Translations under genes and position numbers: made by a program | Notes under the pieces: generated by a model | What the model was told of the DNA's origin: nothing | The model's database searches: none | The model's input: the letters and a program-made list of their open reading frames with translations, nothing else | Shown: in pieces, positions 20,707 to 34,078 of the stretch | Position numbering within the stretch: the stretch's first letter is position 1 | Layout: each line of letters opens with the position of its first letter | Assembly (NCBI GenBank): GCA_009776735.1 | Contig: WRNG01000003.1 | Span: 1 to 51,098, forward strand | DNA: 51,098 nucleotides | DNA from: Dehalococcoidia bacterium | GTDB lineage: Bacteria; Chloroflexota; Dehalococcoidia; Dehalococcoidales; UBA1222 | Direction: 5' to 3'

Positions 20707-21494
20707 ACAACGTAATAATAGACGACAATTCCCGCCAAAATAATGCCGTCAATGCGGTCTAAAAGACCGCCGTGGCCAGGAAGCGCATGCCCGGAATCCT
20801 TGACTCCCATATTGCGTTTGAATAGGGATTCTGCTAAGTCGCCAGTTTGGGCAAAGATACTGGTTATAGCACTTAGAAAGGCAGCTCCCCAAAAGGAAAT
20901 GGGCAAATGAAGAGCCCATGCGGTTAAAATACCGACCACAATGGCGCCGAGTAATCCTCCAAGGGCTCCCTCCCATGTCTTTGAGGGACTGATGCTGCGT
21001 GCCATTTTGTGCTGTCCCAGTAAGCTTCCCACAAAATAGGCCATGGTGTCGGTGGCAAAAGCGCAAAATAAGGCCAGAATAACCCATTCATGACCATGCT
21101 CAAGTCTCACAAGAGTAGCATATCGGCTGGCAGGCCAGCCGATATACAGAATACCGGCCACAGTGAAAGCCCAACCGGCAAAAGCGTCGTCATTATTACG
21201 GCGCAGCAATACCCAAATCATGGGTAGGATAAAAGCGATACTGAACAGCAAACCGTTTTCATCATGCCAATTGAACAATGGAGAAAAAGTGAAAACCAGA
21301 ATAAGACCCAGACCGAGAAATAATGCGGGATGTCCCTTGCCACTGGCACCAATAATGCGATAGAACTCCCAAGCACCAAGCAGGGCGCAGATCGCAATTG
21401 TGATGGTGAATGTGGGGATATATTGGTCGGCCCACAACATGATTAACAAGGCTCCAAACAGTACCAGAGCCGTAAGAATGCGTTTAAGTAACAT
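20694..21494 (-). CDS. cdsA: Phosphatidate cytidylyltransferase
   Basis: SPSKTWEG, GDLAESLFKR..GVKDSG..LPGHGGLLDRID. Confidence 0.97.
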   Translation of the reverse strand: MLLKRILTALVLFGALLIMLWADQYIPTFTITIAICALLGAWEFYRIIGASGKGHPALFLGLGLILVFTFSPLFNWHDENGLLFSIAFILPMIWVLLRRNNDDAFAGWAFTVAGILYIGWPASRYATLVRLEHGHEWVILALFCAFATDTMAYFVGSLLGQHKMARSISPSKTWEGALGGLLGAIVVGILTAWALHLPISFWGAAFLSAITSIFAQTGDLAESLFKRNMGVKDSGHALPGHGGLLDRIDGIILAGIVVYYYVVWTT

Positions 21495-28921: not shown

Positions 28922-30664
28922 CTAGGACAAATCCCATCCAGCGTTAATGGTTTTCTGATACATGGCATACCAGTCATCGTTCTCATACAATTCTTCCGAT
29001 GAACCCGATTTTACAATATTGCCGCCCGCCATCACGAACACACGATCAGCATCAATAATTCCACTTAAGCGATGACTGATTGAGAAAATTGTTCGGCCTG
29101 TTCCGGCTGTTCTAATGGCTGAAAACACGCGTTGTTCAGTTTTGGAATCCATACCTGAAGTCGGTTCGTCAAGTAACAGTATCTGCGGGTTGGCGACAAT
29201 GGCTCTTGCAAGTGACAGTAACTGGGTTTCTCCGCTTGATAGTCCGGCAGCTCCCTCCCCGATGACAGTGGCAAATCCTTGTGGTAAGGCATTGATTGTT
29301 TCGCCCAGCCCCACTGCCTTAACCGCTGCTTCCACTTCCTCTTGAGAAATGGTTTCATCGCCAAGGGTGATGTTTTCCGTTACGGTACCGTCAAAGATTT
29401 GTGGCATTTGAGGTACAATACCAAGCAGACGGCGGCGTTTACGTGGGGGAATCGTATATGGATCCACTCCACAAATACGAACAAAGCCTTCTTTTGGCCG
29501 ATACAAGCCTGCCACAATATTCATCAAGGTTGTCTTGCCGGCCCCGCTACGACCGATGAATACCGCTTTTTCACCAGGCATTAACCGGGCGTGAAGTGCA
29601 TGGAGTACCGGCACTGAACCATAGGAAAAAGTTACTCCATCAATCACAAGTCCTTGGCTTTTATCAATAGGCTGATCAATATACACACGGTCTTCGATGG
29701 GCTCGCTGGCGAATTCATTTACTCTTGAAATACCGGCCATTGCTTGCTGAATTGTCTGGAACTCTTGTGCCAAGGCTTCAATAGGAGCGAAAATTCGTCC
29801 GACAAGGTCAGCAATCGCTGCTAATGTTCCTGTACTTAACGCCAGTGATAGAAAGGTTCCGTTTTTAGCTCCGAACCACAACGCTAAAGCAATGACTACC
29901 GCACGGATTGTTTGCATGAGGCAAGGGAATAAACTGTCATAAAGAGATATTTTACCGATGGCAGCAAAATGGCTTTCCAAAGGCTCACGAAACCTTTGTT
30001 TGCCATTTTCTTCCAGGGAGTAAGCTTTTACAGTATGAATTCCGCGTAGCCACTCTTGTATAAAGGAATAAATATCTGCTACTTTGGAGCGTACCAGCTT
30101 TTGAAACCTAAAAATATTCTTGCGGTAGTAATTAGAAATTAAGAATATTAGCGGGACGATAGTGATTTCCAGCCATATTAACTGGGGGGCAATAATGAAT
30201 AATGAAACCAGCAACCCCACGATTTTAAACAAATCGGTTGCCATTCCGATTATACCACTTGAGAAAAGGGTATTTATTGCGTCCACATCAGTGGTCAGTC
30301 TGGACATGATTTCGCCAACGGGAGTATTTGTGAAGTATTGAATCGGAAGCTTGGATAATCTTTGGGCCATTAACATACGTATACGATTAAGTATTTTTTG
30401 ACCAAGAACCGTTGTGACAACCGTTTTAACAAACGCCACCACATTTACTCCCGCTTGTACGGCTAAATACCATATTGCAAGCAGCCAGATGCCTTGGACT
30501 ATGCCTTTGGCGAAGTGCTCATCAATGATTTGGCGAATGATAAAAGCCGGAATCAGTTGGATGGCCATGGAAGCGATAATCGTCAGCAGAAGCAGTGCCG
30601 CAAGCCACCAGTTGCTTTTCAGCACATACACGGCGGCATCGTTGATAAAGCGTTCTTTTTTCAT
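28922..30664 (-). CDS. ABC exporter subunit (TMD plus NBD), heterodimer partner 2
   Basis: GRSGAGKT, degenerate signature LSSGETQ, LLLDEPT, SHRL. Confidence 0.93.
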   Translation of the reverse strand: MKKERFINDAAVYVLKSNWWLAALLLLTIIASMAIQLIPAFIIRQIIDEHFAKGIVQGIWLLAIWYLAVQAGVNVVAFVKTVVTTVLGQKILNRIRMLMAQRLSKLPIQYFTNTPVGEIMSRLTTDVDAINTLFSSGIIGMATDLFKIVGLLVSLFIIAPQLIWLEITIVPLIFLISNYYRKNIFRFQKLVRSKVADIYSFIQEWLRGIHTVKAYSLEENGKQRFREPLESHFAAIGKISLYDSLFPCLMQTIRAVVIALALWFGAKNGTFLSLALSTGTLAAIADLVGRIFAPIEALAQEFQTIQQAMAGISRVNEFASEPIEDRVYIDQPIDKSQGLVIDGVTFSYGSVPVLHALHARLMPGEKAVFIGRSGAGKTTLMNIVAGLYRPKEGFVRICGVDPYTIPPRKRRRLLGIVPQMPQIFDGTVTENITLGDETISQEEVEAAVKAVGLGETINALPQGFATVIGEGAAGLSSGETQLLSLARAIVANPQILLLDEPTSGMDSKTEQRVFSAIRTAGTGRTIFSISHRLSGIIDADRVFVMAGGNIVKSGSSEELYENDDWYAMYQKTINAGWDLS

Positions 30665-30667
30665 GAG

Positions 30668-32422
30668 TTAGTTACCAGTATCCATAAATCGCTGAGCATG
30701 ATAGATGTCTCGATAAAGGCCGTCATGTTGAACAAGTTCGTGGTGAGCTCCAATCTGGCTTATGTACCCCTTATCAATGACTATGACTTTATCCGTCATT
30801 TCAAAGGTGGATAATCTGTGTGAAAAGAGAAGTACGGTACGATTCTTTAGGCTAGAACGTATATTCTGCATAATGCGTTGCTCCATTGAGACATCAATAG
30901 CAGAAAAAGGATCATCCAGAAGCAGAATTTCTGCTTGTCCGTACCATGCTCTGGCCAGTGTAATTCTTTGGCGTTGCCCGCCAGAAACTCGTAGCCCACG
31001 TTCCATCAGCTTTGTCTCAAGACCATTTTCGAAAGTTGTGATGTCATCTGTCATGGATGCCAGTTCAAGCGCCGGGGAAATATCACCGTAATCACGGTCA
31101 AGTGCGACATTGAAAACCACATCAGCCGAAAAGACGAATTGCTCGTAATCCATATAAGAGATTATCCCGCTACGTTGCTCTTTTAATTCCCGCAAAGGAA
31201 CTCCTTTGACAAAGACATCTCCTTCGTAGGGAAACAATCCTGACAATGCCGCTGCCAGAGCGGATTTTCCTGATCCGATGGGACCAGTTATACCAATCAC
31301 CTCACCGCTTTGAGCAGTAAAAGAAATGGCGTGCACTCCGCTATCGTCACTGAACGGGTAGCGGAAAGAAAGAGAATTTACCTGTAACAATGGTTCTGAT
31401 GCGCGTAATGAGACTTCTGATTTGCATAAGTTATCATCGTTGTTCCCTTGAAGCTTGGCACAAATTCTATCCCAAGATGCTTTGGCTCCGTGCCAAGTGT
31501 TCATTACGCGAGCAACGGAAGGTGTTCTGCTAGTCATGGCAGTGAACATGCCCAAATAAGCGGTGAATACACCGACGGTCCATACTCCGTTAACCACATT
31601 TTCTCCCCCCATACCAACTACAACAATGATGCCGCTTGCGGCAATCAGCATGAACAAAGGGGTCGCTCCTCCCTGTAACGCAGAGAGCGCCACGCTCCAT
31701 CGAAGTTGTTCTTCTAACAGTGTGTTTAATTTGCGTCGGTCGGATCTTTCCAAGCCAAACAAGCGTAACAGCGAGATGCCTGAAACGTTATGCTGCAAGT
31801 GGATGTTTATCCCGGATGCTACTTTACGTGTTCTTTGTGACAGTTTATAAAGTGGTGTCCGCAGTAGTTGTGCTAAAACTACCACTATGGGTATCGGGAT
31901 TGACGCAAGCAGAGTGATTTTAGGGCTGAAGAGCATGCATGCAACAAAATAGGATAGAATTAATAGGATTGTATCCCAAATTTCGCGCACAGTAGTCAAT
32001 ACCGATGAGCTTACTTGTTCTACGTCACCGATGATTCGACTCATCAAGTCACCGATTTTTTCTTGGCGTAAATCGGACATGGGCATATTTAGTATTGATG
32101 CCATCAATTCGGTTCGAATGTCACGGTTCATGAGGTTTGTGATAGCGCGTGAATTTAAGCGCTTAACATAGCGAGCAAGTTGAAAAAAAATGGTGGAAGC
32201 TATGAAAGCAAAAAGATATAGATAAAAAAGTGAAAGGGGAGCTTCGTCATTATTAACAAGATTGGCTGCGTCAATGGTCTTGCCGAGGAATACTGCTCCA
32301 AATATCACTGTTGTGTTGTAAACAATTCCGCCGATAGCATGCAGAACGAATTGTTTGGGATATTTAAACAAATACGAGATGAGCCTTGGTTTATTAGTGG
32401 CGATTGGGATTATTTTTTTCAT
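30668..32422 (-). CDS. ABC exporter subunit (TMD plus NBD), heterodimer partner 1
   Basis: GPIGSGKS, VSGGQRQR, degenerate Walker B LLLDD. Confidence 0.93.
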   Translation of the reverse strand: MKKIIPIATNKPRLISYLFKYPKQFVLHAIGGIVYNTTVIFGAVFLGKTIDAANLVNNDEAPLSLFYLYLFAFIASTIFFQLARYVKRLNSRAITNLMNRDIRTELMASILNMPMSDLRQEKIGDLMSRIIGDVEQVSSSVLTTVREIWDTILLILSYFVACMLFSPKITLLASIPIPIVVVLAQLLRTPLYKLSQRTRKVASGINIHLQHNVSGISLLRLFGLERSDRRKLNTLLEEQLRWSVALSALQGGATPLFMLIAASGIIVVVGMGGENVVNGVWTVGVFTAYLGMFTAMTSRTPSVARVMNTWHGAKASWDRICAKLQGNNDDNLCKSEVSLRASEPLLQVNSLSFRYPFSDDSGVHAISFTAQSGEVIGITGPIGSGKSALAAALSGLFPYEGDVFVKGVPLRELKEQRSGIISYMDYEQFVFSADVVFNVALDRDYGDISPALELASMTDDITTFENGLETKLMERGLRVSGGQRQRITLARAWYGQAEILLLDDPFSAIDVSMEQRIMQNIRSSLKNRTVLLFSHRLSTFEMTDKVIVIDKGYISQIGAHHELVQHDGLYRDIYHAQRFMDTGN

Positions 32423-32597: not shown

Positions 32598-32670
32598 GCC
32601 AGCGTAGCTCAGCCGGTAGAGCAGCTGTTTCGTAAACAGCAGGTCTGGAGTTCGAATCTCCACGCTGGCT
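32598..32670 (+). tRNA. tRNA-Thr (anticodon CGT), CCA not encoded
   Basis: Acceptor GCCAGCG/CGCTGGC, anticodon arm GCTGT-TTCGTAA-ACAGC, T-loop TTCGAAT. Confidence 0.97.
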
Positions 32671-32699
32671 CTGTAGGTACAAAAAGTGGCTTAGCGGTC

Positions 32700-32855: not shown

Positions 32856-32933
32856 TTCTTTACTCCTGTTGAAGTTATTGGAAGAGTTGTTAAAGTCGTT
32901 AAAGAAATAGATTTATAGCAACGTATATTGACA

Positions 32934-33023
32934 TTGGTTAGTGCCACTAACCAACTGAAATTGGTAGTGGCTGACGGTAAAAAATACCTTACGGATGTCG
33001 CTGACACTGAACAAGTTTTACGG
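32934..33023 (+). pseudogene. Fragment of a Bro-N / phage antirepressor-like gene
   Basis: LVSATNQLKLVVADGKKYLTDVADTEQVLR resembles the ..NQLK...DGK...TDVADTEQLLR segment of this family (recognised from memory). Confidence 0.7.
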
Positions 33024-33044
33024 AAGAATTATTGCAACAGTCAT

Positions 33045-33073
33045 TTGAATACTACGGATGGGAATGATATAAT
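33045..33073 (+). promoter_or_regulatory. Promoter of the TA operon
   Basis: TTGAAT-17bp-TATAAT with TG extension. Confidence 0.7.
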
Positions 33074-33120
33074 TAGATATTATTATAAGTACATAATTAA
33101 GGGCTTATTGAGGTGCAAAA

Positions 33121-33378
33121 ATGATAGCAATTAGAACAGTAGACATCAGAAATGATTTCAAACGTGTTAGCAATCTTGTAAAGTCTGGCGAAAAAGTATT
33201 GATTGCTCGCCCACGCAATGAAAATATGGTTGTGTTGAGCGAAAAAGAATACAACGCCTTAGATAAAGCGCGTCGTAATGCAGAATATCTTGCGAAGATT
33301 GACAGGGCTGTTGAGCGTGTGGCTGAAGGTCGTGTTATTGTCAAAACTATGGAAGAACTTGAGGAAATGGCTAGGTGA
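33121..33378 (+). CDS. yefM: Type II antitoxin, Phd/YefM family
   Basis: 85 aa, R.DFK.V...V..GE.VLIAR....VVLS..EY; immediately upstream of a Txe toxin. Confidence 0.88.
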   Translation: MIAIRTVDIRNDFKRVSNLVKSGEKVLIARPRNENMVVLSEKEYNALDKARRNAEYLAKIDRAVERVAEGRVIVKTMEELEEMAR

Positions 33379-33635
33379 GAGTTACCTTTGATGAAGAAGC
33401 CTTAGCTGAATACATTGAGTGGCAAATCGAAGATAGAAAAACTCTTAGACGCATCAATGCTCTTATTCAGAGTATTCAACGAGAAGGTTTTATGGTTGGA
33501 ATTGGAAAACCAGAAATGTTAAGAGGACGAAATGAGTTTAGCCGTCGTATTGATGATGTAAATAGGCTGGTATACACCAGCGATGCAGCACGAAACTTGG
33601 TCATACTATCCTGCAAAGGGCACTATGATGATTAA
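33375..33635 (+). CDS. yoeB: Type II toxin, Txe/YoeB family
   Basis: EYIEWQ.EDRK..RINALI, GIGKPE.L, SRRIDD.NRLVY, SCKGHY; GTGA overlap with antitoxin. Confidence 0.92.
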   Translation: MRVTFDEEALAEYIEWQIEDRKTLRRINALIQSIQREGFMVGIGKPEMLRGRNEFSRRIDDVNRLVYTSDAARNLVILSCKGHYDD

Positions 33636-33683
33636 CTTTACGCTTATTCAAACAAACTTTGATTGCAACCTAAAGTATGGTAG

Positions 33684-33848
33684 TCAACTGACATACAGAT
33701 ACGTCATGGTTTTGTTGACGTAAACAAAACCAAAATACAAATAAAGCACGTTGATAACGGGGTTGAGTTTTGGAGAGCAAAAGATCATTTTGCCGACGTC
33801 GGCAAAATGATACAAATACCTAAAACAGCACACATGTTAGCGATGTAA
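33684..33848 (+). pseudogene. Internally deleted or mosaic DinD-like remnant
   Basis: Frame without its own start: ..HGFVDVNKT..IKHVDNGVEFWRA-KDHFADVGKMIQIPK, joining two motifs normally separated in DinD-like proteins (from memory). Confidence 0.65.
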
Positions 33849-34028
33849 GATAGACTGGAACGGATATTGACAAATGTTATATAGAATTATTAAAATTTTT
33901 GCGCAACAAACTAAGTTGCATCTTAAGTGCCCCCAAGTATTAGATAGCCCATTATACGGGTGTTTTCGAGGCTGGGGATTTTGTTATTCTATAGGAGGAA
34001 AGTTTGAATAGGACACTTTTACCTATCT

Positions 34029-34078
34029 TGTTTCGTAAACAGCAGTTCTGGAGTTCGAATCTCCGCGCTGGCTCTGTA
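34029..34078 (+). repeat. attR-like copy of the tRNA-Thr 3' half
   Basis: TGTTTCGTAAACAGCAGTTCTGGAGTTCGAATCTCCGCGCTGGCTCTGTA, 48/50 identical to 32626-32675. Confidence 0.95.

Follow-up and report, generated by a model that had tools for sequence, protein, structure and literature searches.

The three in-frame palindromes of a small tRNA-associated island from a Dehalococcoidia bacterium belong to a family-wide, DNA-level feature of Bro-N genes, and the comparison of DinD and Bro-type homologues supports that this feature is kept by compensatory changes. We hold with about even confidence that the palindromes are cognate sites of dimeric Bro-N proteins, comparable to the aba element of the BstA system, that they are collected as decoys by mobile elements, and that the island is a stranded mixed cluster of such sites. 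The palindromic element is real and, as far as a search of openly available full texts reached, undescribed: no description of the palindrome or of its free copies was found.

The island itself is an ordinary relic that carries this real palindromic element. In the window, which is the whole analysed stretch of 51,098 nucleotides, the insertion comprises 1,353 bp (about 1.35 kb) with 38% GC, compared with about 45% for the window, and no integrase frame was found among its open frames. The corresponding site is empty in the same-genus genomes G001 and G003, where the insertion is absent. The overlapping frames and their family matches identify a YefM-YoeB type II toxin-antitoxin pair, and the Rfam search returned the tRNA match only, plus one sub-threshold match at E 0.53. 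The 50-nt att duplication, low GC, intact pair and empty site in relatives are shared with other tRNA-integrated YefM-YoeB island remnants, from which this otherwise ordinary island differs in its three palindromes. A DNA search of 41 genomes for relatives of the island retrieved only tRNAs, one palindrome in genome G007, and a Bro-type paralogue on contig C12 of the source genome. We also identified a 72% direct repeat (32909-32940 and 33848-33879) with a perfect -35 hexamer in each copy, and palindrome 1 starts directly after the hexamer of the left copy. Directly left of the tRNA, two low-GC ABC-transporter genes (28922-32422) make up a neighbourhood unlike that in same-genus genomes. The features of the island are listed in Table 1.

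Table 1. Features of the island at tRNA-Thr(CGT), with positions in the window.
Feature	Position	Strand	Basis or remark
tRNA-Thr(CGT), integration target	32598..32671	+	tRNA prediction and Rfam match
attL-like copy (tRNA 3' part) of 50-nt direct repeat	32626..32675	+	96% identical to 34029-34078
Scrap 1, from Bro-type (PDC-S13) gene	32931..33023	+	palindrome codons and predicted wing hairpin; no start region, no C-terminal domain
Palindrome 1, Bro-type, odd centre, perfect 10-bp arms and 1-nt centre	32934..32954		inverted-repeat search
Sigma-70-like promoter with extended -10, upstream of toxin-antitoxin pair	33045..33073	+	consensus match only
YefM/Phd antitoxin, open frame	33121..33378	+	PF02604, E 6.8e-7, just below curated cut-off
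Txe/YoeB toxin, open frame	33375..33635	+	PF06769, E 3e-22; TIGR02116
Palindrome 2, DinD-type allele A, 12/13 pairs	33707..33732		inverted-repeat search
DinD N-terminal piece of scrap 2, about residues 17-30	33741..33782	+	in-frame junction to palindrome 3 at shared Asp codon
Palindrome 3, DinD-type allele B, perfect 28 bp (14 pairs)	33784..33811		followed by about 6 DinD-like codons
Promoter-like site (11/12) pointing to attR	33867..33896	+	followed by ribosome-binding-like motif and short frame entering the repeat
attR-like copy of 50-nt repeat	34029..34078	+	96% match to tRNA 3' end

The palindromes were found with the coordinates, arms and peptides given in a preliminary description of this DNA, and all three lie in codon register, as it had claimed. 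As a chance control, 20 Markov shuffles of the whole 51-kb window were searched: a perfect 14-bp arm never occurred, perfect arms of at least 10 averaged 0.3 listings per window, and arms with 12 matches and one mismatch 0.15. Because such arms are rare or absent in the shuffles, three palindromes of this kind within 880 bp are not chance. Palindromes 2 and 3 differ at nine positions, eight of which are paired, and the palindrome 1 allele differs from that of the C12 paralogue by paired changes as well.

The families named for the gene scraps in the preliminary description were recovered. Scrap 1 matched the PDC-S13 Bro-type model PDLC04920 (E 3.5e-7) and also PDC-S04 (E 6.9e-7) in PADLOC, as well as a Bro-type profile built here (32931-33023, E 4.5e-5); a Pfam search of the scrap itself gave no match. 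For scrap 2, the best protein search hit had an E value of 0.13, with 12 matches of which nine carried a Bro-N domain and three were named DinD, and model NF008573 gave E 0.057 and 12.7 bits against a cut-off of 242 (379.5 for reference P0004). Its alignment contains two DinD blocks with motifs in order, joined across a 33-residue gap, and the order of parts in the scrap is free allele A palindrome, 14 DinD N-terminal codons, the 33-residue jump, palindrome 3 and about six further codons. The scores are weak but the motifs exact; scrap 2 is a DinD fragment, not a member gene, and no start codon was found ahead of it. Palindrome 2 precedes the N-terminal scrap and so departs from the gene order, which marks it as a solitary copy. 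The scraps had also been described as centred on the palindromes, which needs correction. Homology of scrap 1 starts at the left arm and extends about 23 codons beyond, and the second DinD block starts at the left arm of palindrome 3, placing the palindromes at the scrap edge.

Near-full Bro-type genes are also present elsewhere in the source genome. Three paralogues (L016, C12:18000-18870; L017, C16:13628-14437; L018, C84:583-1398) are all broken in the C-terminal half, with two frameshifts and one stop among the three, and keep the palindrome, and no intact Bro-type copy was found in this 83%-complete assembly. Three further Bro-type scraps in the same family (L729, L734 on G008:C89, L727 on G007:C12) retain the N-terminal domain and the palindrome and end soon after.

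The preliminary description had regarded DinD and Bro-type genes as two unrelated families. However, both carry the Bro-N domain PF02498, and both match PADLOC PDC-S13. No significant BLASTP match linked DinD to the Bro-type paralogue, and the relationship emerged from profiles: the profile-profile alignment gave 95.5% probability and E 1.4e-8 over the C-terminal domain. PF02498 was matched by 40 of 40 full-length relatives of the Bro-type gene, and the family comprises 8,465 cluster representatives at E 0.001. Both scraps thus derive from families already covered by PDC-S13, NF008573 and PF02498; they differ in being scraps only, and the palindrome and its free copies are absent from the family descriptions found. 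A literature search on PDC-S13, a candidate defence family, found nothing on function. In a table of PMC6590174, DinD appears only as a LexA-regulated gene, and in PMC10327210 dinD serves only as a reporter.

Homologues for the analysis of symmetry were retrieved via motifs outside the palindrome (at least 120 rows per family), and removal of duplicates, broken frames, unanchored rows and short flanks left 70 DinD and 49 Bro-type segments. Among the matches listed, at least 10 of 13 pairs were kept in 61 of the 70 DinD and 41 of the 49 Bro-type segments, whereas synonymous codon shuffles reached this level in 13% and 4.7% of cases, respectively, and other in-register sites in about 0%. Homologous segments are therefore far more self-complementary than codon-shuffled controls. 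In disjoint sister pairs, with trees built from the downstream protein, the stem differed in 29 of 36 (DinD) and 22 of 26 (Bro-type) pairs, and Watson-Crick-to-Watson-Crick double changes numbered 38 against about 4 expected in DinD and 77 against about 17 in Bro-type genes, the expectations being rough. The idea that symmetry is maintained through compensatory two-sided changes is borne out by these counts. Pairs at second codon positions occur in three different Watson-Crick forms, and therefore both amino acids change together. Should only the structural constraint hold, a palindrome that persists across phyla even though amino acids change for it would still be an unusual double code.

The central pairs of the palindrome are the weakest. 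Coding-strand G.T and A.C mismatches stand at 17:22 in DinD and 7:8 in Bro-type segments; because these ratios are near even, no RNA-wobble (G-U) bias is seen in the stem mismatches of either family. E. coli K-12 dinD has 11 of 13 pairs, and the palindrome is absent from a Riemerella phage DinD, where the best site reaches 7 of 13. Actinophage antirepressor-type genes, which join a DinD-like Bro-N domain to another C-terminus, have 9-11 of 13 pairs in eight of eight cases (best in-register centre), indicating that the site follows the DNA-binding domain and not a toxic domain.

Whether a palindrome lies outside any gene was determined by masking the motif and running the family profile over the flanks. 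Among 92 distinct viral loci with the DinD palindrome, 76 were gene-free, 15 lay in genes and one in a scrap, and the Bro-type palindrome was gene-free at 21 of 26 viral loci. Control motifs were gene-free at 0 of 78 and 0 of 64 viral loci, and the reversed pattern, which is also palindromic, had no viral match, compared with at least 121 for the original pattern. The preliminary description had supposed that the palindromes are retained or shuffled independently of the protein, and the contrast with the controls supports such a spread. For the palindrome 1 allele class, 23 viral matches were found, a few of which may be chance by estimate, and a Bro-type gene surrounded none of the 23. In cellular genomes, 29 of 123 DinD palindromes were free, seven were in scraps and 87 in genes, so that free copies are commoner in viral contigs; the matched control motifs covered the viral contigs only. 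Allowing up to two mismatches, the DinD palindrome pattern matched one of 301 genomes of the class, namely the source genome, which makes free copies of these alleles a rarity there; full DinD occurs in three of the 301. The weight-matrix scan missed palindrome 1 itself and accordingly under-counts Bro-type alleles.

Free copies tend to be stacked. A second family palindrome was located within 150 nt of 23 of 126 solitary copies but of none of 106 in-gene copies, and the loci L115, L202 and L203 mix DinD- and Bro-type palindromes, like the island here. The 16 viral DinD clusters come mostly from one phage group, which also has the three mixed-type loci. Beside intact genes, additional copies were seldom found and then carried a different allele (2 of 29 for DinD, 0 of 19 for Bro-type). 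The 99 free copies with usable flanks form 68 flank clusters, 44 of them viral. No common phage neighbour of the free copies was found among 70 flanking frames, and tRNA neighbours were present at 4 of 56 loci.

Several arrangements of the copies were observed besides. In the phage group of L090, L111, L115, L195 and relatives, three or four different alleles, some of both types, share one short frame near lysis genes. In L106 (1170-1260) and its relatives, phage tRNA genes adjoin a larger paired frame that encloses the palindrome and has covarying flanks; it may be an unknown RNA. In the Bacteroidia loci L496, L516, L517 and L498, dinD lies between an S24 repressor and dinB and has identical palindromes on its two sides, and the frame after dinB presumably encodes a protein resembling an error-prone polymerase alpha subunit.

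RNA or peptide might be considered as the working form of the element, either as an mRNA hairpin with antitoxin or translational-control function or as a peptide mimic made from small phage frames. The weak, loop-like centre would suit a hairpin, as would the copy in a larger paired frame beside tRNA genes in one phage group, and the array in frame behind an ATG in one phage group would suit a peptide. We nevertheless consider this very improbable, since a G-U excess is absent on the coding strand, scrap 2 has no start codon ahead, and open frames of at least 150 codons are absent around 34 of 51 viral copies with long flanks, only five of which have a long frame in DinD register.

A match between phages and satellites was seen in streptococci. 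With a 30-base query, satellites of streptococci yielded dinD genes, and phages of Streptococcus, Flavobacterium and Fusobacterium yielded intergenic copies that are not annotated; E. coli gave no match when searched at the nucleotide level with a distant dinD. In each of the pneumococcal phages EJ-1, Javan316 and phiARI0468-1, the lysin gene is followed by two tandem copies with a spacing of about 45 bp. The dinD allele of the pneumococcal satellite Javan727 matches one copy, and that of the satellites Javan743/416 matches the other, in each case together with the flanks. The phage-satellite alignment scores were 41-62, compared with 17-27 for MissC and Javan362, which lack copies, in a comparison of a few hand-picked, related records and not a survey. 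Javan224 matches Javan416/743 over 35-40 bases.

Neutral physics offers another account, in which template switching matches the arms, hairpin fragments survive degradation and are captured, and the copies in the island and in phages are unselected debris. According to PMC5941160, template switching perfects inverted repeats in proteobacteria, and the paired changes in both arms and the lack of strand bias among mismatches described for quasi-palindromes there are shared by the palindromes here. The deletion junction in the island lies at an arm's edge, and 10 of the 99 free copies retain a few DinD-like flanking codons (null 1.9%), so some of them are gene fragments with ragged ends. Template switching could supply the paired changes; it predicts neither a fixed site across families nor a phage excess nor allele matching. 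One fixed site with a prevalence of about 85% in either family, present in E. coli dinD as well, the phage excess, and the tandem capture of two alleles present in satellites of the same host would all be left unexplained, and we judge this account improbable.

The palindrome might also be an autoregulatory or loading site only, where a Bro-N dimer on a symmetric site in its own gene acts as a roadblock or in feedback and free copies are operators or passengers with no part in counter-defence. Agreeing with this, even antirepressor fusions keep the site together with the Bro-N domain, the identical copies in the Bacteroidia loci L496 and L516 bracket dinD beside dinB and the S24 repressor, and a 44-bp copy in genome G007 overlaps an integrase start. 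However, for a choice of 39 of the 97 viral free-copy loci, 38 phage records were examined, and 35 of these have no Bro-N gene to regulate (10 of 11 among near-complete records); neither the mixed-allele clusters nor the phage-satellite allele match would be predicted. On balance, a purely autoregulatory role seems rather unlikely.

The preliminary description had proposed functional DNA sites of two kinds, operators or recombination/capture sites. The operator reading is not supported for the toxin-antitoxin pair: as an operator or fixed partner of YefM-YoeB the palindromes were rejected, since none of 80 YoeB relatives, checked in available flanks with many short contigs, has one nearby. Between palindrome 1 and the promoter-like site of the pair (33045-33073), which lies downstream of it, there are 90 bp, and the link between palindromes and pair is local to this island. 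Recombination or capture is retained as a minor rival, with an att-like hairpin at which gene halves exchange or insert, leaving scraps and bracketing copies. At L490 a second, diverged dinD fragment begins at the palindrome just past the intact gene, the scraps here begin at a left arm, and a 29-nt direct repeat encloses copy L113, all of which would be expected of such a site. Scrap ends are ragged, though, with no break at the centre, no recombinase is consistently adjacent, and flanking direct repeats of at least 9 nt are limited to 4 of 99 free copies (compared with 1 of 89 in-gene copies), which makes this role very unlikely in our estimation. A CRISPR mini-array or target-duplicating element was likewise rejected on the 4 of 99 free copies with such repeats, target-site duplication not being general.

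In the DinD model (pLDDT 92), the residues encoded by the palindrome (64-73) make up a short helix plus the opening strand of a long hairpin, which, judging from such folds, would be the DNA-contacting wing. A DinD homodimer is supported by prediction, with a score of 0.54 compared with 0.00 for the best of three controls; run agreement was at least 92% and pLDDT at least 87. Of the solved pairs, 20 of 30 reach the dimer mark, as does 1 of 23 single chains. The long hairpin begun by residues 64-73 lies outside the predicted dimer interface. A fold search gave weak matches to Deinococcus DdrC (E 6e-5, TM 0.37-0.46), which serve as a lead only.

Bro-N-family genes (DinD and Bro-type PDC-S13) carry the palindrome as a conserved DNA feature within the coding sequence. 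In the cognate-decoy mechanism that we propose, the encoded protein, as a predicted dimer, would bind its own palindrome as its cognate DNA site. The palindrome would then restrain the cognate protein, as aba DNA suppresses BstA, and phages and islands would carry free copies, likely as decoys that switch off candidate defence proteins. The island would be a stranded mixed cluster of three copies, the relic of the mobile element that brought it. Free, stacked and allele-matched copies in phages without the gene would be the expected look of stolen immunity sites. Phage mimicry of defence nucleic acids is known from the pseudo-ToxI of phage TE and from solitary CRISPR repeats, where a phage likewise harbours copies, stolen or repeated, of an element of host defence; those act as RNA, whereas the mismatch pattern here has no sign of RNA-level selection.

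The closest known system is BstA-aba. As reported in PMC8585504, aba is a DNA element overlapping the coding start of bstA whose suppression, exerted in trans and at high copy, is restricted to the cognate protein, and a single chromosomal aba gave no immunity; for this reason, the cluster here, a single chromosomal copy, may be idle. Both systems pair a gene for an N-terminal DNA-binding domain (KilA-N-like in BstA) with a short cognate DNA element in its own locus, and the action in trans on a replicating element may be common to both by analogy. The aba element of that paper is 63 bp with terminal direct repeats, spans the start codon, and is described in a main text from which the word stem "palindrom" is absent. 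The palindrome here, in contrast, is 21-30 bp, lies wholly in frame about 65 codons into the gene, and accompanies a Bro-N domain, and no BstA model in PADLOC matched either family at E 0.1. Copies here are also free in other phages, which PMC8585504 argues is prevented by cognate specificity. With its different element and domain, the palindrome system is not a member of BstA-aba, yet by analogy it may work like one. Perfect inverted repeats with both arms protein-coding are also reported from mitochondria of Nematomorpha (PMC6649704); those reach lengths of 284 bp, occur many times per genome and are eukaryotic, and neither free copies nor a cognate protein are mentioned in the abstract.

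Several observations count against the cognate-decoy reading: the site is present in antirepressor fusions, the Riemerella DinD lacks it, extra copies near intact genes are few, and the pattern is confined to one of 301 genomes of the class. At several pairs the base identity varies freely, as would suit a structural requirement more than base-specific reading. It is also hard to rationalise that many alleles should each read their own coding DNA. More tentatively, and with less than even confidence, Bro-N proteins, including E. coli DinD, may be a widespread defence superfamily that encodes its own DNA off-switch in the codons of the DNA-binding wing, with protein allele and site co-diversifying, phages stacking stolen, allele-matched decoys, and islands of this kind representing cast-off cassettes. 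If true, this would provide a testable function for DinD, an E. coli SOS gene with no settled role, and would extend DNA-based self-immunity of the BstA-aba kind to a family of thousands of clusters. The counter-defence would consist of 25-30 bp of non-coding phage DNA that is invisible to gene-based searches.

Finally, we also identified further palindromes in the window and in the genomes compared. Two more perfect palindromes in the window (21118-21147 and 35-56, with 12- and 10-bp arms) lie outside these families according to the weight-matrix scan. In genome G007, a 44-bp perfect DinD-type palindrome with extended arms (L019:1525-1568, contig G007:C4) has a HicAB pair on one side and the start of a tyrosine integrase on the other. 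The source genome has two adjoining in-frame palindromes at G000:C63:1545-1608, one of them DinD-like by weight matrix, within a long frame that presumably encodes a protein resembling a restriction-modification enzyme.
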